Source of the DNA: Gemmatimonadales bacterium
GTDB lineage: Bacteria; Gemmatimonadota; Gemmatimonadetes; Gemmatimonadales; GWC2-71-9
Length of the DNA: 64,000 bases
Direction of reading: 5' to 3'
Assembly: GCA_040877595.1 (NCBI GenBank)
Contig: JBBDNM010000026.1
Coordinates: 78,732 to 142,731, forward strand
Below the pieces are notes generated by a model. That model searched no databases, had not been told where the DNA came from, and was given only the letters and a program-made list of their open reading frames with translations. Below, in pieces: positions 10,470 to 61,398 of the stretch; positions within the stretch are counted from its first letter, which is position 1, and each line of letters opens with the position of its first letter. The position numbers and the translations under genes were made by a program.

Positions 10470-10507
10470 TCGACATTCGACATTGAACATTCGACATTCG
10501 ACATTCG
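10470..10507. repeat. tandem heptamer array, about 5.4 x TCGACAT
   Basis: TCGACAT TCGACAT TGAACAT TCGACAT TCGACAT TCG. It sits 7 nt from the stop of the upstream - strand gene (10514) and 77 nt upstream of the DUF433 gene start. Confidence 0.95.
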
Positions 10508-10513
10508 CCGTTG

Positions 10514-10993
10514 CTACTCCGTCAGCGGCACCAACCTCGCCCTCGGCGGCAGCCCCATCTCCAACTCCATGATCCCGACACTCGGCAACAGGTCATACCG
10601 CGGCGGCCCGGCGGACCCAGGGTTCATCACGGTCACCGTCTGATCCACCATCGTAAGCAGCGGCCGGTGCGTGTGACCATACACAATCACGTCGGCCTCG
10701 GGATACGCGGCACGTAGGCCTTCGGGCGTCGGCTGGCCGAAACGGTCGCCGTGGACGATGGTGAAGTTGAGACCTTCCAGTTCCACATGCTGCTCCGCCG
10801 GCAGCCGCCCGCGCAGATCCCAGCCGTCGGTGTTTCCATAGACCGCGATCACCGGCGCCAGCGTTTCCAGCTCCATCAAGAGGTCGTGTGACCCGATGTC
10901 GCCGGCATGCAGGATCTGATCCACCTGTGAGAACACATCGAGAACTTCCGGGCGCAATGGGCCATGCGTATCGGAGATAATGCCGAGGCGCAT
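10514..10993 (-). CDS. YfcE/MJ0936-type metallophosphoesterase
   Basis: Start at ATG 10993: MRLGIISDTHG...HAGDIGS...YGNTD...VHGD...GHTHRP. The track ORF N-terminal extension to 11149 reads through the repeat hairpin. Confidence 0.88.
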   Translation of the reverse strand: MRLGIISDTHGPLRPEVLDVFSQVDQILHAGDIGSHDLLMELETLAPVIAVYGNTDGWDLRGRLPAEQHVELEGLNFTIVHGDRFGQPTPEGLRAAYPEADVIVYGHTHRPLLTMVDQTVTVMNPGSAGPPRYDLLPSVGIMELEMGLPPRARLVPLTE

Positions 10994-11007
10994 CGCTAGG
11001 AGGAGCA

Positions 11008-11078
11008 CGGTGCATGGTACACGGTGCACGGGCCCCGAACGGTCCACCCCGTGCACGGTGCACCGTGCACCGTGCATC
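11008..11078. repeat. inverted pair of GTGCACN heptamer arrays (hairpin)
   Basis: Left arm CGGTGCATGGTACACGGTGCACGGG (11008-11032). 14-nt spacer. Right arm CCCCGTGCACGGTGCACCGTGCACCGTGCATC (11047-11078). About 22 of 25 positions are complementary. Fills the gap between the ubiE stop (11082) and the phosphoesterase start (10993). Confidence 0.9.
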
Positions 11079-11081
11079 GCC

Positions 11082-11798
11082 TCACGCGACCCTGCCCCAA
11101 TGAACCGCCACAACCCCCATCGTGAGCCGTTCATAGCCCACATCCACAAATCCCGCCTGCCGCATCCGCTCGGCCAACGCGTCCGGCTCGGGAAATTGCA
11201 GTACCGATGCTGGCAGATAGGTGTAGGCGTCCGTATGTTTGGACACCAAGCGGCCGACGCGGGGCAGGACGTGACGGAAGTACAACAGATACAGCGGCCG
11301 CACCGGCCACACCCTGGGTGTGGCGAATTCGAGAATCACGAGGCGCGCCCCGGGCTTCAACACGCGCCGCAGTTCCCGCACGCCTTGATCGAGGTCGGCC
11401 AGATTCCGCACCCCGAAGCCCACCATCGCCCCATCAAACTGCCGGTCCCCAAACGGCAGACCAAGCGTGTCCGCACCCACCGCCCGCACGGCTTGGGCCT
11501 TCTGCGTCCCAAGTCGCAACATCGGCACCACAAAGTCCGCGCCGATGACCGTGCCCGTAAAGCCCGGCCGCTTCGCCAACACTGCCGCCAAGTCCAGCGT
11601 GCCCGCGCACGCGTCGAGGTAGCGGCCGGCCGGGGCGCGCTCCCAGCCCAACTGACGCACGGCCCGTTTCCGCCACCACCGATCAATGTTGAGCGACAGC
11701 ACGTGATTGAGCAGGTCATAACGCGGCGCAATGGCCGTGAACATGCCCTTCACATACGATCGCTTTTCGGTTCCGGTGGGGACTGGCGACGCCGTCAT
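11082..11798 (-). CDS. ubiE: demethylmenaquinone/ubiquinone C-methyltransferase (UbiE/MenG)
   Basis: VKGMFTAIAPRYDLLNHVLSLNIDRWWRK. SAM motif LDACAGTLDL. FGVRNLADLDQGVRELRRVLKPGARLVILEF. Confidence 0.9.
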   Translation of the reverse strand: MTASPVPTGTEKRSYVKGMFTAIAPRYDLLNHVLSLNIDRWWRKRAVRQLGWERAPAGRYLDACAGTLDLAAVLAKRPGFTGTVIGADFVVPMLRLGTQKAQAVRAVGADTLGLPFGDRQFDGAMVGFGVRNLADLDQGVRELRRVLKPGARLVILEFATPRVWPVRPLYLLYFRHVLPRVGRLVSKHTDAYTYLPASVLQFPEPDALAERMRQAGFVDVGYERLTMGVVAVHWGRVA

Positions 11799-11815
11799 GC
11801 CGGGAAACGTAACCG

Positions 11816-12421
11816 ATGAGGTTGGACCCGGACACGCTGGCGGAGTTCACCGACCAGGAGGTCGTGGTCCTCGCACAACAGGGCGCGGAGGCAGCGTATC
11901 GGGAACTCATCACGCGCTACCAACGACCCGTGTTTGCCCTGATCTATCGTATGGTGCGCGACCGGGAACTCGCCGAAGATCTGGCCCAGGACACCTTCAT
12001 CAAGGTTCTGAACCACATTGATTCGTACCGACCAGAACACAAGTTCTCGTCCTGGATCTTCAAGATCGCCAATAACGCGGCCATTGATCACCTGCGCCGC
12101 AAACAGCTCAACACTCTCTCCCTGGAAGGGGCGCCGGATGCCCTGACCGCCGACCGTCAGGAGGCCACAGCCCTTCAGGTATCGGGCGGGGAGGAATCGG
12201 CCCTCGACGAACTCGAGGCCCGGGAACTGGGAACCCAGATCGAACGGGCCATCGGACGGCTGAGACCCGAATATCGGGCCTGTATCATCATGCGACATGT
12301 CGAAGGCCGGCCGTATGAAGAAATCGCGGCAGCCCTCACGCTACCTCTCGGCACCGTAAAGACTTACATCCACCGGGCCCGGAATGAACTGCGGGTCCTT
12401 CTGGCGGAGAGCCGGGAATGA
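11816..12421 (+). CDS. ECF-type RNA polymerase sigma factor
   Basis: Region 2 LITRYQRPVFALIYRMVRDRELAEDLAQDTFIKV...SWIFKIANNAAIDHLRR. Region 4 PYEEIAAALTLPLGTVKTYIHRARNELR. Divergent from ubiE with a 17-bp gap. Confidence 0.9.
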   Translation: MRLDPDTLAEFTDQEVVVLAQQGAEAAYRELITRYQRPVFALIYRMVRDRELAEDLAQDTFIKVLNHIDSYRPEHKFSSWIFKIANNAAIDHLRRKQLNTLSLEGAPDALTADRQEATALQVSGGEESALDELEARELGTQIERAIGRLRPEYRACIIMRHVEGRPYEEIAAALTLPLGTVKTYIHRARNELRVLLAESRE

Positions 12422-12455
12422 AACCACCCCCTTTTCCCCCCGTAGGGACGAGCGT

Positions 12456-12956
12456 ATGAACGACGGCACCTTGCATCCTGACCTCGACGATTCGCGTTTG
12501 GACGACGCCCTGGCCGATATCGGTCGCCCTGCCCCCGGCATGGGGTTTGCGGACCGCGTCTTGTCCCGGACCCGGCACCCCCTGCCCAGACGGCTGGTCA
12601 GGATCCGGGATTGGTTCCGGCAGGCCACCAGCGGCGTGCGAGGCTGGGTGCTGCTCGCGATCATTTCCATTACGACCTTGGGCACGTGGTCGGTGGCTGG
12701 GTCCGTGGCCTGGCGCGAGCGGGACGTCATTGCTCGTGGAGCCGACATCGCCGCGGCAGAGGTTGTGGTCCCCGCTGTGCAGGAGGCCCGGGGTTGGCGT
12801 GAGGTGGTGGTGGACCGGCTGTTTGATTGGCTGCCCCTTTCGATTCCCGCACTCAAGTTTTTCCTGATGCTATACGCGGCCGTGTCGCTCGTGTGCGTCA
12901 TTGGTCTCTGGTGGCTCATGCGGACACCGCGCGCTGCGGAGGTTCACAATGCGTAA
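12456..12956 (+). CDS. putative membrane anti-sigma factor (hypothetical)
   Basis: ATG at 12456 (MNDGTLHPDLDD...). Sits immediately after the ECF sigma gene. Has internal TM segments (WVLLAIISITTLGTWSVAG; FFLMLYAAVSLVCVIGLWWL). No diagnostic motif recognised. Confidence 0.5.
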   Translation: MNDGTLHPDLDDSRLDDALADIGRPAPGMGFADRVLSRTRHPLPRRLVRIRDWFRQATSGVRGWVLLAIISITTLGTWSVAGSVAWRERDVIARGADIAAAEVVVPAVQEARGWREVVVDRLFDWLPLSIPALKFFLMLYAAVSLVCVIGLWWLMRTPRAAEVHNA

Positions 12957-14199
12957 TTGTTTCCTGACCCTGACGGGTCTCCTCGCGCTCACGTCCGGCA
13001 CCTTGGCGGCGCAGGACGCCCAGGTGGCGCAGGCCGCCCAAGTCGTCGGCTACTCGGCACAGACGGCCCGCGGCCACGCGACGCTCGACCTGCACCTGTC
13101 CGACGGCACCACCCACCAGATCCGGTTCCGCGGCGGCGAAATCCGCATCGGCAATGAGGTGATCGGCCAGTACACGCCGGGCGGCGCCCTGGAGACCGCA
13201 TGGCGGGCCCTGCTCGCGCGCAGCGATCTCACGAGTCCCGACCAGATGCTGGCGGCCCTGCGGACCCTGCCTGCCGAGGGTCTCGCCGAACTGGATCTGG
13301 CTGGGTTGACCGCGTTGTACGCGAATGCCGCCGTCCCGACGGCACCAGCGGGCGTTGCGGTACCGCCCATGCCGGACTTGGACGCGGTGCGCACACAGGT
13401 ACAGAACGCCCGGACGCAGGTTCGCGATGCCATCCGGAACGAGATTCGCAACGGCATTGAAGCCGGCATTGAGTCGAGCATCGACAACGTCAGTCCGCAG
13501 ATCATCGTCGTACCTCGTGCGGCGGCTCCGCCCATCAGCTCGGTACCCGGCGGCCTTCTGGCCTTGTTCGGCACGCTGATCGCGTTGAGTGGACTGGCCT
13601 TCGGCACCAGCTTCTTCGCGGAGCGCCAGATTGATGTCATGGCGGATACGGTGCAGCACTCGCTGGGACGGTCGTTCTTTGTGGGGCTGTTCGCCCAGCC
13701 CCTCCTCATTCCGGCCCTGGGCGCATTGGTCATTGGGCTCGCGCTGACGGTGGTCGGGATTCTCGTGATTCCCTTCGCGGTGATCGCGTTCTTCGCCCTG
13801 CTGGCGGTGGGTCTGGTGGGTGGCTACCTCGCGGTGGCGCGCGCCACCGGGGCCACATTCCTCACGCGACGGGATCAGCCGATCAGCGGCGGGATGAACC
13901 TGGTCAAGTCCACGATCATCGGGCTCGCCATTCTGATGGCGCTGTGGCTGCCGGCCGTTCTCTTTGGCTGGGTCCCGGTGATGGGCACGATTCTCCGCAT
14001 CGCGGCTGGGCTCGCGACATGGGGCTTGGTCACCACCGGGTTCGGCGCGGCAATTCTTACGCGCGGCGGCGTGCGCGGTACGTTCGGGCGGCGGTTTGCG
14101 CCGGAACCCATTCCGTTCAGTCGTCAGCTGAGCATTCCGGACGAGCCCGCGGCCGAGCGTTTCAGCACGGCCGAGTGGTTGTCCGGGAAGGCCAAGTAA
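12949..14199 (+). CDS. hypothetical membrane protein (signal peptide, soluble N-domain, polytopic C-terminal half)
   Basis: ATG at 12949 overlaps the upstream stop (ATGCGTAA). MRNCFLTLTGLLALTSGTLAAQD. The C-terminal half has several long hydrophobic helices. Confidence 0.6.
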   Translation: MRNCFLTLTGLLALTSGTLAAQDAQVAQAAQVVGYSAQTARGHATLDLHLSDGTTHQIRFRGGEIRIGNEVIGQYTPGGALETAWRALLARSDLTSPDQMLAALRTLPAEGLAELDLAGLTALYANAAVPTAPAGVAVPPMPDLDAVRTQVQNARTQVRDAIRNEIRNGIEAGIESSIDNVSPQIIVVPRAAAPPISSVPGGLLALFGTLIALSGLAFGTSFFAERQIDVMADTVQHSLGRSFFVGLFAQPLLIPALGALVIGLALTVVGILVIPFAVIAFFALLAVGLVGGYLAVARATGATFLTRRDQPISGGMNLVKSTIIGLAILMALWLPAVLFGWVPVMGTILRIAAGLATWGLVTTGFGAAILTRGGVRGTFGRRFAPEPIPFSRQLSIPDEPAAERFSTAEWLSGKAK

Positions 14200-15056
14200 T
14201 GCGCATCGCGCTCCTCGCCACGGTGCTGGCGGCGACCACCGCCCAGGCACAAAGCTGGCAGACGATCACGCAGGCACGCCGGGTCTCAGGCGAAGAACAG
14301 TTGCGCGTGTTCGTGGAGCACGGTGCCGGTACGTTGCGCATTCATCCGGCCGGTTCCGGCCAGCTGTACCGGGTGGCGCTGCGTTATGACGAAGACACCT
14401 TCACGCCACGCGTTCTCTACACGCCCACCTCGTCGAGCCTGCGGGTGACCATGCAGTCGGTGGACCGGCCCGGGAACCGACGTGACTTCGACTGGGATGA
14501 TGATGCGCAGTCGCTGGACCTTCAGCTGACCCCCGATGTCCCGCTGGCCTTGAGCGTGCGTTTTGGCGCAGGGCGCGCCGATGTCGATCTGGGCGGGCTC
14601 AACATCCGGACCTTGAGCGTCGAGACCGGAGCCAGCCAAAGCCAGCTGCGGTTCGACACCCCAAACGCCGGGTCGTGCCGGTTCATGGAACTCAAGGTTG
14701 GCGCCGCGGAGTTCCGCGCCTTTGGGCTCGGCAATGCCCGCTGCGACCGCATCTCGCTCGAGGCCGGCGTGGGCGACATGTTACTCGACCTGTCGGGCGA
14801 CCTGCCGGAGGGGTTCAACGGGACGGTCAGCGTCCAGATGGGGTTGGGCGGACTCGAAGTACGCGTGCCGGAAGATCTTGGCGTACGTCTCAACGTGCGC
14901 CGGTTCCTGGCGAGTGTCGAGCGTGTGGGCTTCATTGCGGATGGCAATCGCAGTTGGGTGACGCCCAACTGGAACGAAGCCACCCGGAAGATCACACTCG
15001 ATATTCGCGCGGTGTTTGGCGGAATCGAGATCGTGCGGGTGGCAACGCCCGAGTAG
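14199..15056 (+). CDS. secreted toast-rack/LiaF-C-like (DUF2154/DUF4097-like) repeat protein
   Basis: TAATG overlap with the upstream gene. Signal MRIALLATVLAATTAQAQ. Repeated G-x-G...(V/L)D(L/V) beta-strand pattern: GAGRADVDLGG, GVGDMLLDLSG, GLGGLEVRVP. Confidence 0.6.
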   Translation: MRIALLATVLAATTAQAQSWQTITQARRVSGEEQLRVFVEHGAGTLRIHPAGSGQLYRVALRYDEDTFTPRVLYTPTSSSLRVTMQSVDRPGNRRDFDWDDDAQSLDLQLTPDVPLALSVRFGAGRADVDLGGLNIRTLSVETGASQSQLRFDTPNAGSCRFMELKVGAAEFRAFGLGNARCDRISLEAGVGDMLLDLSGDLPEGFNGTVSVQMGLGGLEVRVPEDLGVRLNVRRFLASVERVGFIADGNRSWVTPNWNEATRKITLDIRAVFGGIEIVRVATPE

Positions 15057-15069
15057 ATTGCCCGGCAGG

Positions 15070-15600
15070 ATGACGCCCCTGCCCCCTCCCCAACCAGACG
15101 AGTACGCGGCGTTCTACGCGAGCTACGTCGCCGAGGCCACGGCGGCCGGCGCGGATGTGATCGCTGTGCTCGAATCGCAACGCTCGCTCACTGCCGCTCT
15201 TGGCAATCTGCCGGAATCCGTGGCGGCCAAGCGCTACCAGCCCGACAAGTGGTCGGTCAAGGAAATCGTCGGCCACCTGGCGGACGGTGAACGCGTGTTC
15301 TGCTACCGCGCCATGCGGTTTGCGCGCGGTGACGCGACCCCGGTCGAGGGATTCGATGAAAAGGCGTATACTCCGGCCGCGCGCTACGATCGCCGCACCA
15401 TCGCCCAGGTGGCGGACGAACTCGCCGCCGTGCATGAGGCGAGCATCGCGCTGTTCCGCACCTTTGACGCCGAGGAAGGCGCACGGTGGGGGGAGGCCAA
15501 TGGATCCCGCTGCACGGTGCGGGCGCTGGCATGGTTTGTGGCCGGGCATTTTCTTCACCATATGACGATGCTGCGCGAGCGGTACGGGATCGCACTCTGA
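15070..15600 (+). CDS. DinB family (DinB_2-like) protein
   Basis: ATG at 15070. PDEYAAFYASYV...KWSVKEIVGHLADGERVF...WFVAGHFLHHMTMLRE shows the metal-binding His pattern of the DinB fold. Confidence 0.75.
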   Translation: MTPLPPPQPDEYAAFYASYVAEATAAGADVIAVLESQRSLTAALGNLPESVAAKRYQPDKWSVKEIVGHLADGERVFCYRAMRFARGDATPVEGFDEKAYTPAARYDRRTIAQVADELAAVHEASIALFRTFDAEEGARWGEANGSRCTVRALAWFVAGHFLHHMTMLRERYGIAL

Positions 15601-16697
15601 TGACTGTCGCCACGTGGCTGGATCTCGGCAGCGCCGAGGAACTCAGCAAGCGCACGCTCCAGCAGGTCACGGTGGGGAAGGTGCAGGTTGCGCTGACCCA
15701 CCGCGATGGGACGTTCACCGCCGTGTCCGGTATCTGCAACCATGTGGGTGGCCCGCTGGGGGACGGACACCTGGACGGCGACTATATCGTCTGTCCGTGG
15801 CACAACTGGAAGTTTCATTGTGTCACAGGCGAAGGGGAACCCGGGTTCGAGCAAGATCGCGTGCCGCGCTTCGAGGTGACGGTGGAGGACGGTCGGGTGC
15901 TGCTCAATCCGGTAGCGGTGACCAAGCGTCACAAGGCCCCGCACGAACGGCATCCGCTGGCTCGACCGGTTGTGCGGGCCGCGGGACCGCTCCGGGTCCT
16001 CGGCATCTCGACCACGAACATGGACGTCGAGCATCGGCGGTACTCTACGTCAGAGGACTTGTTAGTCACCGCCCTGGACCACGCGAAGGGGAACGGCGCC
16101 GAGACGCAGATCGTCCGGCTGCACGAACTCACGTTCCGCGCGTGCGAGGGGTACTACTCCAAGAGCGCGCATGCCTGTACGTGGCCGTGCTCCATCACGC
16201 AGATGGACCCGGATGACCAGCTGGACCGTGTGTACGAGGGACTGGTCCATTGGGCGGACGTGGTGCTGGTGGCCACACCGATTCGCTGGGGCAATGCCAG
16301 TTCGTTGTACTACAAGATGATCGAGCGCCTGAATTGCGTACAGAACCAGATGACCATCCGCAATACGGCGCTCATCCGGAACAAGGTGGCCAGCTTCGTG
16401 ATCACGGGAGGCCAGGACAACGTGCAGGCGGTCGCGGGACAAGCGATGATGTTCTTCGGGGAGCTGGGCTTTCAGTTCCCGCCCTTCCCGTTCATTGCGC
16501 ATAGTCGCGGCTGGGACGCCGAGGACATGGAGGGGAACACGCGGGTGGTGCGCAACAGCACGGTCCTGCATGACGGCGCGCGTGCGCTGGTGGACCGGGC
16601 GATGGGAACCGCCGCGGCGCTCCTGGAGCACGCGACGGAGGCCCGGCAGTTCACGCGGGCCGGCCGCAAGGCGTACGGGGCAGGACGGGAAACATGA
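15600..16697 (+). CDS. Rieske [2Fe-2S] domain fused to a flavodoxin-like NAD(P)H-dependent FMN reductase domain
   Basis: ATG at 15600 overlaps the upstream TGA. Rieske ligands CNHVGG...CPWHNWKF. Second half LRVLGISTTN...VVLVATPIRWGNASSLYYKMIERL...FVITGGQDN. Confidence 0.8.
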   Translation: MTVATWLDLGSAEELSKRTLQQVTVGKVQVALTHRDGTFTAVSGICNHVGGPLGDGHLDGDYIVCPWHNWKFHCVTGEGEPGFEQDRVPRFEVTVEDGRVLLNPVAVTKRHKAPHERHPLARPVVRAAGPLRVLGISTTNMDVEHRRYSTSEDLLVTALDHAKGNGAETQIVRLHELTFRACEGYYSKSAHACTWPCSITQMDPDDQLDRVYEGLVHWADVVLVATPIRWGNASSLYYKMIERLNCVQNQMTIRNTALIRNKVASFVITGGQDNVQAVAGQAMMFFGELGFQFPPFPFIAHSRGWDAEDMEGNTRVVRNSTVLHDGARALVDRAMGTAAALLEHATEARQFTRAGRKAYGAGRET

Positions 16698-16730
16698 GCG
16701 ACCTCGCCTTCGGGCGCGTCGTGGCGGTCC

Positions 16731-17837
16731 TCAGCCGGTAAGTATCGGCAGAGTCCGCTTCACCCCGGTCTTCTTCTGCACCAAACGCGCGATCGCGATG
16801 AGCGCATGGGCGGCGGGCGAGTCCGGCGCGGCAATCACGACCGGCGTACCGGCATCCGCCTGATCGGCCAGGCCCGCCTGGAGCGGGATGCGGCCCAGCA
16901 GGTCTACGTTCACTTCCGCCGCCAGCTTCTCGCCGCCACCGGTCAGGAAGATCTCCGTCGTCTTGTTGCAGTGGGGACAGACGAACCCCGCCATGTTCTC
17001 GACCACGCCCAGCACCGGCACACTCACCCGCTCGAACATCTTGGCACTGCGCAAAGCGTCGCCGACGGCCACTTCCTGCGGGGTCGTCACAATCACGGCG
17101 CCGGTAAGCTGGATGGACTGTGCGAGGGAAAGCTGGGCATCACCGGTGCCGGGAGGCATGTCCACAATCAGATAATCGAGCGTGCCCCAATCCACGTCGC
17201 GCAGGAACTGCTGGATCACCTTGGTGACGATGGGCCCGCGCCAGATGGCCGCCGTGTCGCGCTCCATCATGAACCCCATGGACATGAGCCTCACGCCGTG
17301 CGCCTCGAGCGGCACGATGCGCTGGCCGCGGATGGGCGGTTTCTCATTGACGCCGAACATGCGTGGCACGTTCGGGCCATACACGTCGGCATCCATGAGC
17401 CCGACGCTCTTCCCCTCAGCCGCGAGTGCCACCGCCAGATTGGCGGCCACGGTGGACTTGCCGACACCACCCTTGCCGGACGACACCGCGATGATGCGAC
17501 CCAATTGGTCGGGTGCCATCGCCTGGGCAGGCGGCGGCGCGCGATGCGCCGCCTGCGTACCAACCGGTGCCGCACGACCCGCAGGCGTCGACGTGGCGGG
17601 TTCCTTCACGTTGATCCGCACGCCGGTGACCCCTTCCACCTCCTGCACCGCCTTGCGGGCCTCACGGACCAGGCTGGCCGGATCATCGCGGCCGAGCAGG
17701 AAGGTGAATACCACGGCGCCTTCGGCGCTCACGGACAAATCGGCGACCATCCCGGCAGAAATCACGTCGTTGCCGACGCGCGGATTGCGGACACTCGTCA
17801 GGGCGCCCGCGATGCGGGCTTCAAGCGTATTGGGCAT
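16731..17837 (-). CDS. apbC: Fe-S cluster carrier ATPase (Mrp/ApbC/NBP35 family) with an N-terminal DUF59-like domain
   Basis: Deviant Walker A VSSGKGGVGKSTVAANLAVALA. DADVYGPN. CPHCNKTTEIF. Confidence 0.92.
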   Translation of the reverse strand: MPNTLEARIAGALTSVRNPRVGNDVISAGMVADLSVSAEGAVVFTFLLGRDDPASLVREARKAVQEVEGVTGVRINVKEPATSTPAGRAAPVGTQAAHRAPPPAQAMAPDQLGRIIAVSSGKGGVGKSTVAANLAVALAAEGKSVGLMDADVYGPNVPRMFGVNEKPPIRGQRIVPLEAHGVRLMSMGFMMERDTAAIWRGPIVTKVIQQFLRDVDWGTLDYLIVDMPPGTGDAQLSLAQSIQLTGAVIVTTPQEVAVGDALRSAKMFERVSVPVLGVVENMAGFVCPHCNKTTEIFLTGGGEKLAAEVNVDLLGRIPLQAGLADQADAGTPVVIAAPDSPAAHALIAIARLVQKKTGVKRTLPILTG

Positions 17838-17847
17838 GATGCGGAAA

Positions 17848-18852
17848 CTAATGGATCAAGACGGCCCGGGCGGCCTCCAGCACCTTGGCCTGCACGTCCG
17901 CGAGCGTACCCTCGAGCGATGCGCCCGCGGCCCTCACGTGGCCCCCACCATCAAACTGTCCCGCCAGTGCTGCCACATCCACACCGCTCATCGAGCGAAA
18001 ACTCACCTTGATGCGACCGTTCCCGATGGGACGGAACAGCAGTGCGAGCCGAACGCCGGCGATCGAACGGGGAAACTCAACGATGCCGTCCAGATCTTCC
18101 GAGGTGGCCCCGAATTGCTCCATGGCACCGGGCGGGACGGTTACCCACGCGAGTCCGTTTTCCACCACCAGTGTCTCGAGCACGTGCCCGGTCAGCCGCA
18201 CCCTTCCCTCCGGCGCGCTGGCATACACCTGCGCGTATACGGTCTCGGGATCCAGTCCGCATTCCAGCAGCTCGGCCGCCACGCGGAGCACCCGGGGCGA
18301 GGTATTACTGAACCGGAACCCGCCGGTGTCGGTCAGCATGGCCACATAGAGCCCGCGAGCCGCAGCCGGCGACAGCTCCCACCCGGCCACGCGGCCCAGG
18401 TCGTACAGCAACTCGCCGGTGGCGGCCGCGGCCGGATCCACCATGCGCGGGCCCGGCGGGAGCTGCCCTTCGCTCATATGGTGATCAATGCAGACCACGG
18501 GCACGCCGCGTGACGCCACGTGGCTCCCGAGCTGGCCCAGACGCCCCAGATCAGCAATGTCGAGCACCACGATGAGATCGGCCTGTTCGATGGCCTTGAC
18601 CCCCTGGGTGCCGGCGTCGAGGTCGTCCCGACCGTCCAGCAGGAAGCGGTACCGGTCGGGGAACCCCGTGGGAGCGGCAATCACCGGCAGGCAGCCGAGC
18701 GCCTCAAGGCACAGCGCCAGCCCGACCGCACTGCCCGAGCCGTCCCCGTCGGCATTCACGTGGGTGGTGATCACGACTCGCTGGCCGGGCACAAACGCTT
18801 TCAGCACGAGCCGCGCATCCCGGCGGCGTTTCGGGGGTATGGGGAGGGTCAT
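17848..18852 (-). CDS. nrnA: DHH/DHHA1 phosphoesterase (NrnA-type oligoribonuclease/pAp phosphatase)
   Basis: HVNADGDGSGSAVG, VLDIAD, CIDHHMS, GGGHVRAAG. Confidence 0.88.
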   Translation of the reverse strand: MTLPIPPKRRRDARLVLKAFVPGQRVVITTHVNADGDGSGSAVGLALCLEALGCLPVIAAPTGFPDRYRFLLDGRDDLDAGTQGVKAIEQADLIVVLDIADLGRLGQLGSHVASRGVPVVCIDHHMSEGQLPPGPRMVDPAAAATGELLYDLGRVAGWELSPAAARGLYVAMLTDTGGFRFSNTSPRVLRVAAELLECGLDPETVYAQVYASAPEGRVRLTGHVLETLVVENGLAWVTVPPGAMEQFGATSEDLDGIVEFPRSIAGVRLALLFRPIGNGRIKVSFRSMSGVDVAALAGQFDGGGHVRAAGASLEGTLADVQAKVLEAARAVLIH

Positions 18853-18928
18853 TGCCGGGGGAAGCTAGCGCCGAGCCCACGCTTTGCCCATCTTGTGCCC
18901 GGCCAAAACGCCCCCCAAGGGAGTCTGC

Positions 18929-20662
18929 ATGCTCGAACACATCGTCACCACGGTCAACAACCTCGTGTGGGGGTTCGGCTTCACCATCGGCGGGGAGCGA
19001 CTTCCCGTGGTGGTGATTGCCCTGCTCGGCACCGGCGTCTTCCTTACCCTTCGGCTCGGGTTCATCCAGTTGCGCCGCATCGGCCACGGGTTTGCCGTGA
19101 CCAGCGGCAAGTACGATGACCCCGACGAGCCCGGTGACGTGCCGCATTTCCAGGCGCTCACCACGGCCCTTTCGGCCACGGTCGGGATCGGGAACATCGC
19201 CGGCGTCGCGATCGCGATTCACTGGGGTGGGCCCGGCGCGTTGTTCTGGATGTGGATGACAGCCCTGCTCGGCATGGCGGTCAAATACTCCGAGGTGACG
19301 CTGGCCCAGCACTATCGGGTGACGGAACCCAACGCGACCGCGCTGACGGGGTCCGTCTCCGGCGGCCCGATGTACTACATCGAACGCGGACTCGGGAAAC
19401 ACTGGAAGCCGCTGGCGATTTTCTTTGCGATCATGCTCGGCTTCACGGCGTTCCTGACCGGGAACGCGGTGCAGTCCAACACGGTTGCCGACACGATGCT
19501 CACCGAGTTCAGCATGCCGGCGTGGGCGACGGGCCTGATCACGAGCGCCATCGTGGCCTCCGTGGTGTTGGGTGGCATCAAGCGCATCGGGCGCGTCACC
19601 GCGATCATGGCGCCGGTCATGGCGGCGGTGTACGTCCTCGGCGCCGCCGTGATCATCCTGCTGCATTTCGACTGGTTCATCCCGGCGGTGAAACTCATCT
19701 TCACCGAAGCGTTCAACCCCACCGCGGGTGTCGCGGGCACGGGCATTGGCGCGATCCTCACCACGATGATGTGGGGTGTGCGACGCGGCCTGTTCTCGAA
19801 CGAGGCCGGCCAGGGTTCCGCGCCCATCGCGCACGCGGCCGCCAAGACCGACGAGCCCGTCTCTGAGGGCGTCGTCGCGCTGCTCGAGCCGTTCATTGAT
19901 ACGCTGGTGATCTGCACGATGACCGGGCTCGTCATCATCATGACGCAGTCCTGGCAGGAGACGACCCCCACGGCCCTGTCTCTTGGTGGCGGCGACCGCG
20001 GGTACGTTCTGGTGGACGACGGTGGCGTCACGCGCCAGGCCACGCTGGCCGATGCCCCGGTCTCACTCCGCATCGCGAACGGTGCGCCTGCCGACCCGGC
20101 TGGCATCCGGTTTGCCTGGCACGAAGCGTCGGTCGAGATGTTCTATACGGATGCCGGCCAGACGATGCCGTTCACGGGCGTTATTCGCCCCGCGACCGGC
20201 GATGCGCTTGCCGACGACGGCACCACCTACGGCACGTTGTACGGACCGGCGGTCGAAAGCGGCGCGCCGCTCACCATGATGGCGTTCCGGGAGGGCCTGC
20301 CCGGCACCTGGGGCCGCTTCATCGTGCTGTTCGGTGTCTTGCTCTTTGCCATTTCAACGGCCATCAGCTGGAGCTACTACGGCGACCGCTGTGCCAACTA
20401 CCTGTTTGGCGCCAAGGCCATTCTGCCCTACAAGATCGCGTTCATCGGCATGCACTTCTTCGGCGCCGTGGTCTCGCTGCAGGTGATCTGGGACATGGGC
20501 GATATTGCCCTCGGCATCGTGATTCTCCCCAACCTGCTGGCGCTCTGGCTGTTGTCCGGCAAGGTGAAGGAAATGACCGACAGCTACTTCCAGCGCCGGC
20601 CGTGGGAGTCGAACGCCGAGAAGCACAAACAACTGAAGGCCCAAGGCAAGCAGACCCACTAA
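18929..20662 (+). CDS. alanine/glycine:cation symporter (AGCS family) with a long extra-membrane insertion
   Basis: ATG at 18929 (MLEHIVTTVNNLVWG). LSATVGIGNIAGVAIAIHWGGPGALFWMWMTALLGM. SNEAGQGSAPIAHAAAKT. About 100 extra residues at roughly nt 19945-20265. Confidence 0.88.
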   Translation: MLEHIVTTVNNLVWGFGFTIGGERLPVVVIALLGTGVFLTLRLGFIQLRRIGHGFAVTSGKYDDPDEPGDVPHFQALTTALSATVGIGNIAGVAIAIHWGGPGALFWMWMTALLGMAVKYSEVTLAQHYRVTEPNATALTGSVSGGPMYYIERGLGKHWKPLAIFFAIMLGFTAFLTGNAVQSNTVADTMLTEFSMPAWATGLITSAIVASVVLGGIKRIGRVTAIMAPVMAAVYVLGAAVIILLHFDWFIPAVKLIFTEAFNPTAGVAGTGIGAILTTMMWGVRRGLFSNEAGQGSAPIAHAAAKTDEPVSEGVVALLEPFIDTLVICTMTGLVIIMTQSWQETTPTALSLGGGDRGYVLVDDGGVTRQATLADAPVSLRIANGAPADPAGIRFAWHEASVEMFYTDAGQTMPFTGVIRPATGDALADDGTTYGTLYGPAVESGAPLTMMAFREGLPGTWGRFIVLFGVLLFAISTAISWSYYGDRCANYLFGAKAILPYKIAFIGMHFFGAVVSLQVIWDMGDIALGIVILPNLLALWLLSGKVKEMTDSYFQRRPWESNAEKHKQLKAQGKQTH

Positions 20663-20674
20663 CCCAAGGATCCC

Positions 20675-50144: not shown

Positions 50145-50150
50145 AGGGAC

Positions 50151-50524
50151 TCATTCCAAGGATTGGCGCAGGAACCAGCAGAGCGTTCCCGCGTGGTTTC
50201 GTTGTCCGTCGAGGTCACGCCATTGATCCGGGGTGAGGTAACCGACATCCCGGGCAAGTAGTAGCCAGTTACCAACCTCATTCAATGAGGTAATTGCAAT
50301 GGACAGATACCGACGAAACTCCCGCTTGGTGGGCTTAGCGCTGCCCTCAGCGATATTGGCGCCAGCAGACGACGCTGCCCGACGCAATTGGGATGTCAGC
50401 CCTACTTCTCCGTCTCAGGAAACGAGCCTGTGACATGATAGAGCTGAACCGTCAGGGCGTGAGTTTCACCAACATTTCCACCCTTCAACTCTTCAACCCT
50501 TAGACTCTTCAAATGGAGGCCCAT
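50151..50524 (-). pseudogene. four-helix-bundle protein gene (TIGR02436/PF05635, 23S rRNA IVS protein/Avd family), frameshifted
   Basis: C-terminal frame: (V)GLTSQLRRAASSAGANIAEGSAKPTKREFRRYLSIAITSLNEVGNWLLLARDVGYL. N-terminal frame: MGLHLKSL...THALTVQLYHVTGSFPETEK, then TAG. The family motif FP..E(K/R)YGLTSQ is restored by adding one base in the TA- codon near 50403. The N-terminal 20 codons overlap the right-hand repeat array. Confidence 0.8.
50463..50518. repeat. 8-bp unit array, reverse-complement partner of the 50037-50144 array
   Basis: GTTTCACC AACATTTC CACCCTTC AACTCTTC AACCCTTA GACTCTTC AAATGGAG. AACTCTTC and GACTCTTC are reverse complements of GAAGAGTT and GAAGAGTC. GTTTCACC is the reverse complement of GGTGAAAC. 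Confidence 0.85.
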
Positions 50525-55110: not shown

Positions 55111-55118
55111 CGAGGCGC

Positions 55119-57254
55119 ATGGTACCCCGTCGAGAGTTCCTGACCAGCGCGGGCGCCGTACTCGGGGCGGTCGCATCGCGCCATCTCGCCGCGCAGATGA
55201 TACCTGCGGTCGAGGCGATTCCGACAGTATTCCATGGTCATCCGGACGGTACCCGCACGTTGATCCGCCTTGTCGTGCGGAACAGCGACGCGCCCGCCGG
55301 ACGACTGCGCGTGTACGATGAGCGCACCAACGCCCTCCTCGGCACGGCCGGCGTGATCTCGGTTGGCGACGGCCGATTGTCGGGCGAACTGTGGCTGCCG
55401 CTCGAGCGACCGCTGCGTGTGCGCACCGAACTGGAGTACCCCGGAACTCAGCGCCCGCTCCGCGATCGGTTCACGCTGACCCCCACGCCCCGCTGGACCC
55501 TGCACTGGCTGTTGCTCGCCGACCCCGCCTCGATCACCGCGACGCTCGCGACGCTCGACGCGATGTGGCGTGGCGTCCCTGTCGCTGCGTTACGCGACGT
55601 CGGCGCACAGATCGACCCCGTCCGCCATGCGGAAGCACCTACCGATCTCGCGGCCGCGCGCATCGTCTGGCCCGCGTGGATGGCCAGTCGAGCGTCGGGC
55701 CTGCCGCTCGCGCCCGTGGGCACGGCGTTGCGCGGGTTTGCCGGGCTGCCGTCCGTGTTGGCTGGCTCCGGACTGACCGGCACGGTCGGCATGCTGGATG
55801 AACCGTGGACCGTCGTGGACCAGATCCCGGCCTCGCTGGCCGACCTGCAACGCCTGGTGGAAGAACGTCTGGTGGCGAACGACGCTCCGCTCCACCGAGG
55901 CTTCGTCGTAACACCCATCCATCAGGACACCGACGGATTGGCGGCGTTGTTCGACGCGTGGCGCACGCGGTTCACCGCGCCGGTTCTCGCGGTGGGCACG
56001 GCCCCCGCCGACATGCGGACGCGCGGAATCACGATGCTTGGTGTTGCGCTACCTGGGGGCCCGGACGCGCTCGCCGAACGCGCAGCCCAGCGTCGAGACG
56101 CCCTCGAGTCGGAGGGCGATTCGCTGTTCGCCCCGTTGGCATCCCCGCTCGGCGCGTCCGGGAATGCTCGGACGGCCATCGCGAACGCCATACGCTCCGC
56201 GTACGCCGGGACCATCGTGTTCAACGCGACATCGTTCGGGCGCACCGACGTCGTGCGGGCGGGCGACGGCGAGTGGATTGCCACGGACATTCCGGGTCCA
56301 GGATATGCTGTCGTGCCAACGCCAGCGCCGATCACCTGGCCGGAACCGACGACGACCGCACCGCCGGTTATCGCCAACATCACGTGGCGTGTGCGCCTGA
56401 CCGAGCGCGGCACCATCAGTTCCCTGCTCCACCAACCAAGCGGCACGGAACTCGCGGGCACCCACGGGCTCATGGTGGCGTCGGATGCACGCGCGATGGA
56501 TATCGGCGTCACCCGCGTTCGTGCCTTCGGAGAGCGTCTCGTCGTGCGCCACGTGGCGGGCGGGTCCCGCTGGACCACAACGTTCACACTATACAACGGC
56601 CTCGATACGCTGGACGTGCAGACCGACGGTGGTCCGTGGGACCATGCGTGGCGCTTCGATGCAGCGGTGGGCGGCACGCGCACACGCTGGGCGGAGTTGC
56701 TGGGTATGGGTCAGGCGGACGGCGCGATGCACGGGGTCTCGGCGGGCGACTGGTGGGCGGCCGACGGCACCGCCGGCTCGCTCATGGTCGCCTGTCCTGA
56801 CGGTGCGGTGCTCAGTCGTGACGCCGACGGCGTGTTGCGTCACATGGGCCCATCCGGCGGACTGCGACTTCGCCTGGCGTTTGCCGGCACCGCGCTCGCG
56901 GATGATCCATGGCGGATTGGTGCGTTGGGCCATCCTTTGATCGCCCTCCCCATCCCAGGCACCGGCTCAAACGCGTTGCCAGGCTTTGGCCGCGTGCTCA
57001 ATCTGCGCGATCCCGGTACCCGTCTGGTGGGGCTGCGCCCAGCAGATGACGGCCACGGCGTCATCGCGTACTTGCACGACATCATGGGCGTGGCTCGACC
57101 AATCACTCTGCAGAGCGATCTCCATACCATCCGCACTGCGTACGCCTGCGACCTGCTGGAGCGCGATCGCGCGGTGCTCACCGTGCAGGACGGCGCAGTC
57201 ACCGTAGAACTCGTCGCCGACGGAGTGGTCGCGGTGCGATTGATACTCGGCTAG
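55119..57254 (+). CDS. large hypothetical exported protein (twin-arginine-like signal)
   Basis: MVPRREFLTSAGAVLGAVASRHLAAQ. 711 aa. No catalytic motif recognised. The C-terminal beta-sandwich-like tail is weakly reminiscent of glycoside hydrolase C-terminal domains (speculative). Confidence 0.55.
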   Translation: MVPRREFLTSAGAVLGAVASRHLAAQMIPAVEAIPTVFHGHPDGTRTLIRLVVRNSDAPAGRLRVYDERTNALLGTAGVISVGDGRLSGELWLPLERPLRVRTELEYPGTQRPLRDRFTLTPTPRWTLHWLLLADPASITATLATLDAMWRGVPVAALRDVGAQIDPVRHAEAPTDLAAARIVWPAWMASRASGLPLAPVGTALRGFAGLPSVLAGSGLTGTVGMLDEPWTVVDQIPASLADLQRLVEERLVANDAPLHRGFVVTPIHQDTDGLAALFDAWRTRFTAPVLAVGTAPADMRTRGITMLGVALPGGPDALAERAAQRRDALESEGDSLFAPLASPLGASGNARTAIANAIRSAYAGTIVFNATSFGRTDVVRAGDGEWIATDIPGPGYAVVPTPAPITWPEPTTTAPPVIANITWRVRLTERGTISSLLHQPSGTELAGTHGLMVASDARAMDIGVTRVRAFGERLVVRHVAGGSRWTTTFTLYNGLDTLDVQTDGGPWDHAWRFDAAVGGTRTRWAELLGMGQADGAMHGVSAGDWWAADGTAGSLMVACPDGAVLSRDADGVLRHMGPSGGLRLRLAFAGTALADDPWRIGALGHPLIALPIPGTGSNALPGFGRVLNLRDPGTRLVGLRPADDGHGVIAYLHDIMGVARPITLQSDLHTIRTAYACDLLERDRAVLTVQDGAVTVELVADGVVAVRLILG

Positions 57255-57286
57255 ACGGCCAAGCGGCCAGACGGCTAGTGTACGGT

Positions 57287-59385: not shown

Positions 59386-59410
59386 CGGTGGGCGACTGCC
59401 TCTTCGCGCG

Positions 59411-60625
59411 CTACAGTTGCACAACCCCCGGGTGCCGACCCAAGGCAAGCCAGGCCACAACTCCCGTGGTGAGACCGCCCAAGGTCAACACCCATGTTGT
59501 CCCCACCATCTCTGCGGCTGTCCCAGCCGCGAACGCTCCAATCGGTGCCATCCCGACAAATGCCACCGTATAGACGGATACGACTCGCGCACGGAACTCA
59601 TCCGGGGCGATGGATTGAATCAGCGTATTGGTCAGTGCGGTGGCGATGATCATGGCGGCACCCATCATGGCCAACAGCACCAAGGTCAGCGGCAATGACC
59701 GCGACAACGCCACCAGAGCCACCAGCAACCCAAAAGCCGCAGTACTCCATGCCAGCACTCGGCCCTTCGGGAGTTCGTGCACGTAGAGGGCCAGCACGAG
59801 TGCACCACCCAGCGCGCCCAGTCCCACCGCCGACATCATCCAGCCAAACTCACGGGCGCCCACCTCGAGTACGCTGCGGGCGAGAACCGGCATGAGGGTC
59901 AGCACGGGGATGGACAGGATACTGGACGCCGCGATGTTGAAGACGATGCGGCGCAGCCGCGGTTCCCCGTTGACGTAGCGCAATCCCTCGACGATCCGGT
60001 TCCACGGACGGCCGGTGGCTGACGGCCGGCTGCGGTCGACGGATTTGCGAATCACCAGCATGACGCCGAGCACGGCCAGGAACGTCACGCCATTCAGTAG
60101 AAAGCAGATGCCAACGCCAAACGCACCAATCAGGACGCCGGCAATGCTCGGGCCGATGGCGCGCGTGCCGTTGAATGCCGAGGAGTTGAGCGCAATCGCA
60201 CTCGGCAGATGCTCTCGACCGACCAGATCAAAGAAGAACGAGTGGCGTGCCGGGATATCAAATGCCTGTACGATCCCCAGTCCGGCGGCGAGCAGGGCTA
60301 CGAGCGTGATGGTGGCGTTGCCGGAGTACCACATGATCGCGAACGCAAAGCCAAGCAGCATGCCGAAGGTTTGCGTGACGAACACCATGCGGTAGCGTGA
60401 CACCCGGTCGGCCACGGCACCGGCGTAGAGCGAGAACAGCAGGACGGGCAGCGTCCCGAGCGCGTCTACCAGACCGACGTAAAACGGGGAGTCCGTGAGT
60501 TCGACTACGAGCCAGGCCTGCGCGGTCCGCTGCATCCAGACGCCGATGAGCGACACCACGTACCCGACAAAGAAAATCCGGAACGCGGGGACATTCAGGG
60601 CACCGGCGCGGGCGCGTGGTGCCAT
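59411..60625 (-). CDS. MFS transporter (EntS/DUF894-like)
   Basis: 12-TM pattern. FRIFFVGYVVSLIGVWMQRTAQAWLV...GAVADRVSRYRM. Confidence 0.85.
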   Translation of the reverse strand: MAPRARAGALNVPAFRIFFVGYVVSLIGVWMQRTAQAWLVVELTDSPFYVGLVDALGTLPVLLFSLYAGAVADRVSRYRMVFVTQTFGMLLGFAFAIMWYSGNATITLVALLAAGLGIVQAFDIPARHSFFFDLVGREHLPSAIALNSSAFNGTRAIGPSIAGVLIGAFGVGICFLLNGVTFLAVLGVMLVIRKSVDRSRPSATGRPWNRIVEGLRYVNGEPRLRRIVFNIAASSILSIPVLTLMPVLARSVLEVGAREFGWMMSAVGLGALGGALVLALYVHELPKGRVLAWSTAAFGLLVALVALSRSLPLTLVLLAMMGAAMIIATALTNTLIQSIAPDEFRARVVSVYTVAFVGMAPIGAFAAGTAAEMVGTTWVLTLGGLTTGVVAWLALGRHPGVVQL

Positions 60626-61029
60626 CAGGTCACGATCTCGAGCGGTGCGCCGCCGACCTGGACCGCAGCAAAGTCCCGGCGGTCGAACGTCAGGATGCGA
60701 CGGAGTTGGAGTGTCTCGGCAAGCACCAGGAGGGTGGCATCGGCGTAATCAGTTCCAAACTGTCGCATCAGCCGGCTCGCCGCACGCTGGTCCGGGGGGT
60801 CCAGCCCGCGAATCGGGACGCCGGCATCCAGCAACGCCTCGACGACCACCCACGGTTCGACTCCGCCCCGGCGCACGAGGTGGGTGGCCTCGGTCACCAC
60901 CGCCTCTGATGTCACGCAGTGGCCGATGTAGCGGGTGAGGAGGTCCAGACTGCGCGCATGCTGGTGATCGTTACGAGCCAGCGCCGCCACCAGCGGCCCG
61001 GTGTCGAGAAGCACCGTGCCGGGGGACAC
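60625..61029 (-). CDS. PIN-domain ribonuclease toxin (VapC-like)
   Basis: GTG at 61029, 2 nt after the antitoxin stop. VLLDTGPLVA...SEAVVTEA...YADATLLVLAE...ILTFDRRDF, with the acidic PIN residues D, E, D, D. Its stop overlaps the MFS ATG by 1 nt. The track ORF upstream part reads through the heptamer hairpin. Confidence 0.8.
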   Translation of the reverse strand: MSPGTVLLDTGPLVAALARNDHQHARSLDLLTRYIGHCVTSEAVVTEATHLVRRGGVEPWVVVEALLDAGVPIRGLDPPDQRAASRLMRQFGTDYADATLLVLAETLQLRRILTFDRRDFAAVQVGGAPLEIVT

Positions 61030-61030
61030 G

Positions 61031-61285
61031 CTACTCGCGCCAGTTGTGACGATAGATCTGGTCGGCGATGGGATCGTTGCGAATCGCGTCATAGTCGAGG
61101 CTGACCGAGCCCAGGTACGGCGCGAGGCGTTCGGCCGCGCGCGACCGATCAACGGCCGGGCTCGCGAGGTAGGCCTCGATGGCCTCACGGACCACGGCAC
61201 CGCGGGCGACCCCGCGCGCCTTGGCCAGCTTCCGGATGGCCTTGGCGAGGTCGGCGGGGAGGCGGAGGGACAGTTGTTCGGACAT
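61031..61285 (-). CDS. ribbon-helix-helix (CopG/VapB-like) antitoxin
   Basis: MSEQLSLRLPADLAKAIRKLAKARGVARGAVVREAIEAYL is a beta-strand plus two helices, the RHH fold. Confidence 0.8.
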   Translation of the reverse strand: MSEQLSLRLPADLAKAIRKLAKARGVARGAVVREAIEAYLASPAVDRSRAAERLAPYLGSVSLDYDAIRNDPIADQIYRHNWRE

Positions 61286-61290
61286 GCGTC

Positions 61291-61319
61291 AATGTAGTAC
61301 AGATGCATTACATGTGCAA
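61291..61319 (-). promoter_or_regulatory. candidate promoter/operator of the RHH-PIN-MFS unit (near-leaderless)
   Basis: The - strand reads TTGCAC, a 17-nt spacer, TACATT, gacgc, then ATG. The spacer and flanks contain palindromes TGTAgTACA (61293-61301), ATGCAT (61303-61308) and ACATGT (61310-61315), which are plausible RHH operators. Confidence 0.45.
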
Positions 61320-61324
61320 TATAG

Positions 61325-61398
61325 GGCGTGCGTAGTGCGTAGTGCGTGGTGCGTGGATATTCCGTTCTACGCACTACGCACCACGCACCACGCACGCC
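61325..61398. repeat. inverted pair of GTGCGTR heptamer arrays (32-nt arms, 10-nt loop)
   Basis: Left arm GGCGTGCGTA GTGCGTA GTGCGTG GTGCGTGG (61325-61356). Loop atattccgtt. Right arm CTACGCA CTACGCA CCACGCA CCACGCACGCC (61367-61398). 28 of 32 positions are complementary. Confidence 0.95.

Follow-up and report, generated by a model that had tools for sequence, protein, structure and literature searches.

The 64,000-nt stretch analyzed here (the window; positions 78,732 to 142,731 of the forward strand of contig JBBDNM010000026.1, assembly GCA_040877595.1, from a Gemmatimonadales bacterium) contains five loci between genes at which units of 7–8 nt are repeated head to tail, mostly as two inverted arms. 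A first-pass annotation made from the sequence alone had listed these loci, and Tandem Repeats Finder (TRF), together with direct inspection of the sequence, located all five at the positions it gave. In the window and its relatives, we observed a period-specific excess of such arrays, a preferred placement, pairing with coupling between the arms, a one-unit length polymorphism, turnover of the units, and preservation of the reading frame where the arrays are translated. The explanation we favor, with a probability of about 55%, is that the loci are fast-changing long simple-sequence repeats (SSRs) of 7–8 nt that arise through slippage in low-constraint spacers and are mostly self-propagating by-products.

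Locus 1 (10469–10507, minus strand; TRF, sequence and gene calls) is a direct-only heptamer array of 5.6 copies, its unit reading TTCGACA on the plus strand and CGAATGT in the sense direction. It lies 6 nt past the stop codon of a metallophosphoesterase gene (10514–10516), upstream of a DUF433/helix-turn-helix (HTH)–PIN_10 toxin–antitoxin pair, and its folding does not surpass that of shuffled sequence (z = −0.2). Locus 2 (11008–11078, minus strand) is an inverted pair of GTGCACN heptamers with about 4 units per arm and a 20-nt loop. It fills the gap from the UbiE stop codon (11082–11084, 3–5 nt away) to the ATG of the phosphoesterase gene (10993), and its hairpin has a folding energy of −58.8 kcal/mol (z = −5.0). 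Locus 3 (36021–36059, minus strand; TRF, sequence and gene calls) is the palindrome GTTCCC(GTGCACN)x4GGGAAC. It starts on the final base of an acyl-CoA dehydrogenase stop codon (36058–36060) and ends 18 nt ahead of the start of an EVE-domain gene equipped with a GAGGAG ribosome-binding site of its own; the hairpin energy is −35.9 kcal/mol (z = −6.6).

Locus 4, on the plus strand, is built of octamers. Its left arm (50037–50144) consists of 2.4 copies of GAAAAGAT, about 8 copies of GAAGAGTG, and 3.4 copies of GGTGAAAG, and begins at 50037, on the final base of the stop codon of glcD. The right arm (50463–50518) has CTTCAACY octamers in the orientation opposite to that of the left arm and stops just short of the ribosome-binding site of the following gene, the ATG of which is at 50523. 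The arms show 78% inverted complementarity over 45 nt and are 378 nt apart. Locus 5 (61325–61398, plus strand) is an inverted pair of GTGCGTR x4 and YACGCAC x4 with a 12-nt loop and a hairpin energy of −66.6 kcal/mol (z = −7.6). It sits in a divergent gap between a ribbon-helix-helix (RHH)–PIN toxin–antitoxin pair (start at 61285, minus strand) and a VWA-domain gene (start at 61441, plus strand). AT-rich palindromes, separate from the arrays of locus 5, lie closer to the RHH start and are more operator-like. Four of the five loci thus abut a stop codon within 0–6 nt (loci 1–4), as had been claimed. The inverted architecture, described as usual for the set, was seen at loci 2, 3, and 5 and in the arms of locus 4, locus 1 being direct-only. 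Toxin–antitoxin pairs adjoin both atypical loci, at 9279–10393 (minus strand) by locus 1 and at 60625–61285 (minus strand) by locus 5; the DUF433–PIN pair is missing in the 81–89% identical relatives with contigs that extend past the phosphoesterase gene, so that it is a recent insertion beside locus 1.

Three further arrays had escaped the first-pass annotation, two of them inside open reading frames (ORFs). An inverted octamer pair, GGCGGGAA / CTTCCCGC, lies at 52141–52207 (plus strand) in a glcF-like ORF; it occupies a hypervariable linker between the Fer4 and CCG domains, its translation contains WRGGGKAGRTRLPAFPRSRPS, and its hairpin energy is −55.4 kcal/mol (z = −3.9). A direct octamer array, 3.4 copies of GCGGGGAC, is translated within the VWA-domain gene (62082–62108, plus strand). 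The third array, GGCTAGAC GGCCAAGC GGCCAGAC GGCTAGTG (57248–57275, plus strand), bridges two genes, from the TAG stop codon of the first to the GTG with which the second starts. The junction at 57248–57278 looks as if an overlapping stop/start TAGTG had been duplicated three times in 8-nt steps, making a 23-nt spacer.

We then compared the window with chance expectation, defining an exact tandem run as two copies plus 3 nt and simulating sequences with a 3rd-order Markov model. Five runs were found at period 7, where 0.2 were expected, and four at period 8, where 0.0 were expected, while periods 4–6 and 9–12 stayed at chance level. The statement that the arrays sit in the few gaps of a compact region needed correction: the five loci are indeed located between genes, but the arrays occupy only 5 of the 25 gaps of at least 25 nt. 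It had also been proposed that the loci share an architecture without sharing a sequence, which proved overstated, since loci 2, 3, and 5 have a GTGC core in common; these three match GTGCNNN x3, a pattern found 13 times in the window against 1.75 expected. Beyond this core, the five loci have no common consensus. No Rfam family matched the window at gathering thresholds. A CRISPR array was considered and rejected, the units being 7–8 nt long and joined head to tail without spacers.

Relatives were sampled in two sets. The first comprised 80 UbiE-anchored loci from species-representative genomes (1.29 Mb including the window), and the second comprised 80 GlcF-anchored metagenome loci without taxonomic labels (0.73 Mb), giving about 2 Mb of related DNA in total. 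Individual relatives are cited below by L numbers. The relatives in the second set were all at most 57% identical and served as a replication rather than a strain comparison. The UbiE of the window is at most 73% identical to Gemmatimonadales proteins from metagenome-assembled genomes, which makes the source an uncultured member of this order. Logan metagenome contig L001 matches the window at 100% identity over 13 kb, and its gene calls were used for the window along with those of our own codon-model caller. Arrays of at least 3 copies were counted, and the expectation was taken from Markov simulations.

Period-7 arrays were abundant in both sets, with 126 in the first (10–19 in simulations) and 103 in the second (11–22 in simulations), an excess of 5–10 times over expectation. 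The excess was smaller at period 8, and the second set showed one at period 10 as well. The 126 heptamer arrays of the first set are built from 60 distinct units, and 94 of them fall within the 8.3% of the sequence outside called genes. In that set, co-directional gaps contained 64 arrays, convergent gaps 31, and divergent gaps 4 (divergent share 4/105). In 46 of 55 gaps, the first arm started at most 6 nt from the upstream stop codon; away from the over-sampled anchor site, this was true of 28 of 34, against about 15% expected. The first unit often contains the stop codon itself, and in convergent gaps both stop codons lie within the arms.

Neighboring arrays with the same unit were always inverted: the two sets together yielded 83 inverted pairs and 0 direct ones. 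The median arm length was 4.3 units, and the two arms agreed within one unit in 84% of the pairs (Spearman 0.41, p = 1e-4). The spacer between the arms had a median of 25 nt, and the median hairpin energy was −62 kcal/mol. With about 4 units per arm in inverted orientation, either the DNA or the RNA could form hairpins of 25–30 bp. Unit variants were not mirrored between the arms in any of 44 informative pairs (0/44).

Part of this sequence is translated. The supposed intergenic region after a UbiA-like gene turned out to be a small ORF, the ATG, GTG, or TTG start of which overlaps the TGA stop codon and the end of which encodes a conserved tail, RHPKRSPTPNRRGR. In 33 of 33 species with the tail motif, the tail is read in the frame set by the start, and no stop codon interrupts this frame in either arm. 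The tail bears a coding signature, with entropies of 0.60, 0.45, and 1.52 bits by codon position and with Arg codons alternating between CGN and AGR. Arrays were present in 27 of 55 small-ORF instances. Our gene caller missed this ORF, so that the count of non-coding arrays includes some that are translated. The predicted product is an unannotated small basic protein of 34–75 amino acids, with a Lys/Arg/Gly-rich and then Pro-rich body followed by the invariant-like RHPKRSPTPNRRGR tail, and it had no Pfam or NCBIfam match. Through an ATGA/GTGA overlap, its gene is translationally coupled to ubiA or ubiE, and a TGATG often couples it to the following gene as well. The 55 loci include L083:4894-4998 (ATGA-coupled, after ubiE), L033 (after position 13041), and L027 (after ubiE).

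The linker of GlcF provides the second translated case. It contains 7/8-mer arrays, mostly as inverted pairs, in 22 of 81 genes, and the frame remains open in 22 of 22, including the glcF of the window. The linker lies between the motifs MLAAT.P and ALF.GC and measures about 50–100 residues (L088–L167, e.g., L123:10443-10518 and L148:3322-3405; 52120–52215 in the window). Even where no array can be recognized, a Gly/Arg/Lys-rich part of the linker is often succeeded by one rich in Pro/Ser. These features suggest that much of the GlcF linker consists of decayed former arrays. We rejected the notion that the glcF pair of the window is an insertion relative to homologues, because hypervariability extends over the entire linker, which the homologues have in a longer form. 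Most of the other heptamer arrays that appeared to be coding were weak three-copy chance repeats. Open frames leading from the arrays into the downstream genes at loci 1, 2, 3, and 5 are uninformative, as stop codons are rare in high-GC sequence.

The arrays change in length by whole units. The sister-sample contigs L086 and L087 showed 0 mismatches and a single 7-nt gap over 2326 nt; the gap is one TGTGCAC unit, giving 3 versus 4 copies. This unit-step polymorphism was found only in an 81% relative, and no strain polymorphism was seen at the window's own loci, where the sole 99% relative (L082) and Logan contig L001 were identical to the window. At an orthologous site, GTTCCCC was present in 1 copy in L023 and in 4 copies in L008. 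The first-pass annotation had set a lack of bias toward gene ends, or of length polymorphism, against its own reading; the arrays are strongly biased toward gene ends and toward DNA outside called genes, and length polymorphism exists.

The units themselves are replaced while the architecture stays. At the site downstream of the UbiA-like gene, dozens of species have one architecture with differing units, including GGGGAAC, ATTGCGG, GGTGCGC, GCAGAAT, AACGCGG, and GGATGCG. The units at this orthologous site resembled each other only where the neighboring protein was at least 90% identical, and below about 90% the turnover was complete. A general tracking of phylogeny by the units was rejected, as it holds only at 90% identity or more and no overall correlation was found. 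Presence or absence of an array flips among relatives at identities of 80% and above.

The gap between UbiE and the phosphoesterase was found in three states among relatives of 80–100% identity. In the first, the small basic-protein ORF is present without arrays (L083/84, L169). In the second, GTGC-type arrays flank the small ORF, on both sides in L086/87; in L170, the contig of which is cut upstream, an array follows the ORF stop codon. The third state has arrays without the ORF and occurs in the window and in L168, where the unit is GGAGCAA. The window thus lacks the small basic protein gene and has locus 2 (11008–11084) in its place, and its lineage appears to have lost the gene at this site. 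The unit of locus 5, GTGCGTR, recurs in relative L169 with at least 7 copies right after the phosphoesterase stop codon. The earlier proposal that a generating process, rather than the copying of one element, underlies the loci gains support from the L086/L087 heptamer, from the L023/L008 pair, and from the change of units at orthologous sites; it has to be qualified by the recurrence of unit families described below.

We propose the following course of events for these long SSRs. Unit-step strand slippage would make and remodel the arrays. A pair would be born with both arms already sharing the consensus unit and the copy number, presumably through joint creation; each arm would then gather variants independently, and the pair would soon be lost or replaced. 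Arrays would persist at sites of minimal sequence constraint in these compact genomes, mainly from the stop codon on in co-directional and convergent gaps. They could likewise persist in translated but unconstrained, disordered segments in which only the total length and the reading frame are selected. Any effects on the mRNA or the peptide would be incidental, the pairs would not be dedicated terminators, and we infer that they have no selected function.

Several observations weigh against this explanation. Plain slippage leaves the shared unit and copy number of the two arms unexplained. Between L031 and L034, the neighboring proteins of which are 95.6% identical, the consensus changed from GCGGATT to GCAGAAT in both arms. 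Of the oriented pairs, 55 of 62 have the G-rich (purine-rich) arm leading on the sense strand, and so do all 24 of 24 intragenic pairs; examples in the window are 11008–11078 (minus strand), 52141–52207 (plus strand), and 50037–50518 (plus strand). This order is a transcription- or replication-linked asymmetry, and it could reflect function. Units were identical in 6 of 23 site pairs within genomes, compared with 23 of 1307 between genomes, and each lineage has unit families of its own that reappear at non-orthologous sites. This points to a contribution of copying, or of a preference for certain sequences, on top of slippage in place. The placement at gene ends and the rarity in divergent gaps would fit a 3′-end function as well. 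The sampling adds to these points: the related DNA consists of two anchored neighborhoods drawn from many genomes, and a single orthologous site supplies about 40% of the gaps of the first set. Moreover, the gene calls came from a simple codon-model caller of our own, which agreed with the independent calls for L001.

Template switching at quasi-palindromes and hairpin-primed reiterative polymerase synthesis, the latter known in vitro, are two processes that could couple the arms. We put forward, tentatively and as less likely than not, that hairpin-coupled expansion creates both arms together and continually rewrites Gemmatimonadales spacers and disordered protein segments such as the GlcF linker and the small basic protein. 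The Lys/Arg/Gly-rich and then Pro-rich body of this protein would be the composition encoded by a G-rich arm followed by a C-rich arm. If such expansion takes place, non-triplet microsatellites would routinely give rise to new coding sequence under selection for total length only, and the polarity, with the G-rich arm leading, would show in which direction the replication or transcription step runs.

A functional explanation would have the pairs selected as RNA stem-loops at the ends of genes, serving as terminators without U-tracts, as barriers to 3′-exonucleases in the manner of repetitive extragenic palindromes (REPs) and bacterial interspersed mosaic elements (BIMEs), or as RNase III sites that separate or stabilize segments of polycistronic mRNA. 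Stems of 25–30 bp suit RNase III. The stability of the hairpins (z from −5 to −7.6 in the window), the start of the first arm 0–6 nt past the stop codon in most gaps, the inclusion of both stop codons in the arms of convergent gaps, the scarcity of arrays in divergent gaps, and the retention of one architecture at an orthologous site despite the change of unit all agree with this idea. In the window, matches to canonical terminators do not exceed chance, which would call for another 3′-end device. Other observations speak against the idea. Pairs occur within sequence that is translated throughout, both in the small ORF and in the GlcF linker, and several lie mid-operon only a few nucleotides ahead of the next ribosome-binding site (e.g., locus 3). 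No sign of selection at the RNA level emerged from comparing sense with antisense folds or from the mirroring of the arms: the sense RNA was the more stable in 31 cases and the antisense RNA in 30, G·U pairs numbered 103 in the sense and 130 in the antisense direction, and position-specific compensation between the arms was absent. Presence is patchy among close relatives, and neither locus 1, which has no hairpin, nor locus 5, which lies in a divergent gap, fits the scheme. Inspection of the sequence found no T-run after any of the five loci, and no U-tracts followed the hairpins. Termination is untenable as a general role given the pairs in translated sequence, the missing U-tracts, and the position of several pairs just ahead of ribosome-binding sites. 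Intrinsic (Rho-independent) terminators in particular were rejected, the stems being 25–30 bp long, without a U-tract, and in part inside ORFs. The earlier suggestion of terminators or processing stems as a general role hence has to be given up, and we regard selected stem-loops of any kind as unlikely. At positions 1–20000 of the window, canonical intrinsic terminators (stem plus U-tract) gave 10 matches against 8.9 expected, and sigma-70-like promoters gave 1 against 2.1; the organism probably uses other signals than these.

Dispersal by copying would be the explanation if the pairs were small palindromic mobile elements, resembling REPs or MITEs (miniature inverted-repeat transposable elements), with heptamer-built stems and a few families per lineage. 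The pairs are indeed palindromic and REP-like in lying outside called genes, identical units are enriched within genomes as noted above, units with the GTGC core are found at three loci of the window and elsewhere in relatives, and L048 and L040 have the same variant pattern (AACGCGG...AAGTCGG, GTTTCGC) at two sites. Against copying, the loops and flanks differ between sites and no consensus extends past the unit. The diversity of units, the frequent inclusion of the local stop codon in the first unit, the change from 1 to 4 copies in place at orthologous sites, and the unit-step polymorphism also disagree with it. No association with a transposase or a REP-associated tyrosine transposase (RAYT) was seen, although no systematic search for one was made. 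We judge this origin to be quite improbable. Still less probable are protein-binding sites, be they RHH or HTH operators, sites for a nucleoid or cruciform binder, or targets of a cold-shock-type reader of single-stranded heptamers. Repeated short units are typical of operators, and loci 5 and 1 adjoin the RHH–PIN and the HTH/DUF433–PIN pair, respectively. CspB has also been reported to bind heptamer repeats with one protein per heptamer (MacGregor 2015, PMC4679880). Most arrays, however, follow housekeeping genes without a nearby regulator, the AT-rich palindromes nearer to the RHH start are the likelier operator at locus 5, and no single sequence-specific protein fits units that differ between sites and species. 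Least credible of all were two further proposals of the first-pass annotation, contingency (phase-variation) loci and footprints of four-helix-bundle cassettes. Unit-step length change exists, and a 7-nt step within an ORF would shift the frame; yet the neighboring genes are housekeeping ones (ubiE, ubiA, glcDEF, acyl-CoA dehydrogenase) rather than surface or restriction genes, no on/off alleles were seen, and most arrays lie past stop codons, where a change in length switches no gene. The cassette idea draws on locus 4, where inverted arms enclose a four-helix-bundle remnant much as in a 23S rRNA intervening sequence. Such a gene, decayed at that, was found in only 1 of 83 pairs. Both proposals are largely refuted here.

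Long SSRs of this kind have described counterparts. Our arrays show a 7-nt head-to-tail excess, a bias toward gene ends and non-coding DNA with few divergent cases, and unit-step change, as expected of heptameric long SSRs. According to papers citing their survey (Rehm et al. 2015; MacGregor 2015), Mrázek, Guo & Shah (2007, PNAS 104:8472) describe heptanucleotides as the most abundant class of long SSRs in most of the genomes covered, mainly in intergenic DNA, and propose that the polymerase holds about 7 nt of DNA, which would favor slippage. The survey is reported to assign units that are multiples of three to coding regions, whereas here 7/8-nt units are translated and the frame is maintained through the total length.

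The closest described case is that of the GGGAATC arrays of Xanthomonas, about 185 in number, of which 70–75 are inverted pairs, with about 4 units preferred (Rehm et al. 2015, PMC4692102). Both systems combine a high GC content with 7-nt units, about 4 copies, a non-coding location near ORF ends, and under-representation in divergent gaps. In both, length and sequence vary between close species, the single or paired type being preserved in Xanthomonas. Xanthomonas has essentially one unit, which is G-quadruplex-capable, whereas our loci have many, most of which are not (e.g., GTGCACG, TTCGACA, ATTGCGG); this high diversity excludes G-quadruplex formation as a general rationale. The pairs described here differ further in occurring in frame within translated segments, in often having a stop codon in the first unit, and in belonging to the phylum Gemmatimonadota.

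The first-pass annotation had named the short tandemly repeated repetitive (STRR) sequences of cyanobacteria as the nearest analogue, but the wider class of heptameric long SSRs, and the inverted pairs of Xanthomonas above all, are closer. STRRs such as Nostoc GGGGAYT, and TAACTGA of Beggiatoaceae, are likewise intergenic tandem heptamers, in 2–6 or more copies (Rehm et al. 2015, PMC4692102; MacGregor 2015, PMC4679880). They are mostly direct and use one or a few fixed units, whereas inverted pairs located after stop codons dominate here. Nostoc has few inverted pairs (Rehm et al. 2015, PMC4692102), and a Beggiatoaceae genome has 169 direct sets and 1 indirect set; the TAACTGA sets frequently lie upstream of genes, and no structure is predicted for them (MacGregor 2015, PMC4679880). 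Membership in the cyanobacterial STRRs was rejected, the host being a member of Gemmatimonadales and the units being many and different.

REP/BIME sequences are palindromic, follow stop codons in co-directional and convergent gaps, including those within operons, and are absent from promoters. They would be the closest functional analogy if our pairs had a role. A genome-wide consensus of about 35 nt is common to REPs, which are linked to RAYT, whereas the pairs here share nothing past the repeat unit; their stems, composed of tandem repeats, exceed those of REPs two to three times in length, and the pairs are also found inside ORFs. Assignment of the loci to a REP/BIME or MITE family was rejected for want of a shared consensus: the five loci have only the GTGC core of loci 2, 3, and 5 in common, and the loops and flanks differ. 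The tandem repeats of Borgs resemble ours in being fast-evolving, genome-specific, and of independent origin, and in forming disordered segments in genes (Schoelmerich et al. 2023, PMC9879509). The Borg repeats are direct and A-rich with longer units, those in genes being divisible by three, whereas our units of 7–8 nt are inverted and stay in frame through their total length (PMC9879509).

The repeat class as such is thus already described (Mrázek et al. 2007; Rehm et al. 2015), and what differs here is the diversity of the units, the incorporation of stop codons, and the in-frame translated pairs. The library searched contained no literature on such repeats in Gemmatimonadota. The findings bear on annotation, as the arrays fill many gene gaps in a widespread and poorly studied soil phylum: their hairpins should not be called terminators, and some apparently intergenic DNA is a small conserved ORF. 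Why heptamers dominate the long microsatellites of bacteria has been a question since 2007, and Gemmatimonadales are unusually informative in this respect, with many units, which rules out explanations tied to one particular unit, coupled arms, a strong strand polarity, and orthologous sites in several states. If the translated cases are typical, non-triplet repeats would shape disordered protein segments.

Locus 4 merits a separate description. Between its arms, within 50151–50436 on the minus strand, lies a decayed four-helix-bundle gene (TIGR02436 / PF05635, 23S_rRNA_IVP) covering profile positions 31–98 of 109, with the remnant placed at 50151–50387. The remnant is 5′-truncated and has a stop codon or frameshift inside the motif FP..E.Y.L.SQLRRAA. 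It is the sole gene-sized insert among the 83 pairs, the spacer reaching 70 nt or more in 4 of them, and tblastn detected no second four-helix-bundle gene in the 1.29 Mb. Within the glcD–glcE–glcF operon, the remnant occupies the loop of an inverted repeat that is long and imperfect, and in this it resembles rRNA intervening sequences, which are located in hairpin loops. The layout of the 23S rRNA intervening sequences, a PF05635/TIGR02436 ORF within stem-forming ends, was seen at locus 4 and not at the other 82 pairs.

Some relatives have longer arrays than the window (L007:10705-10790, L106:2162-2355 and 10075-10249, L120:6550-6784, L118:7094-7156). These reach 9–11 units per arm or, in the direct form, 11 NNGCTCAG octamers running from the ubiE stop codon. 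Several of their units contain stop codons (GAGAAGT, AGGAGTG, TGAGCTA), so that the arrays place stops in all three frames.

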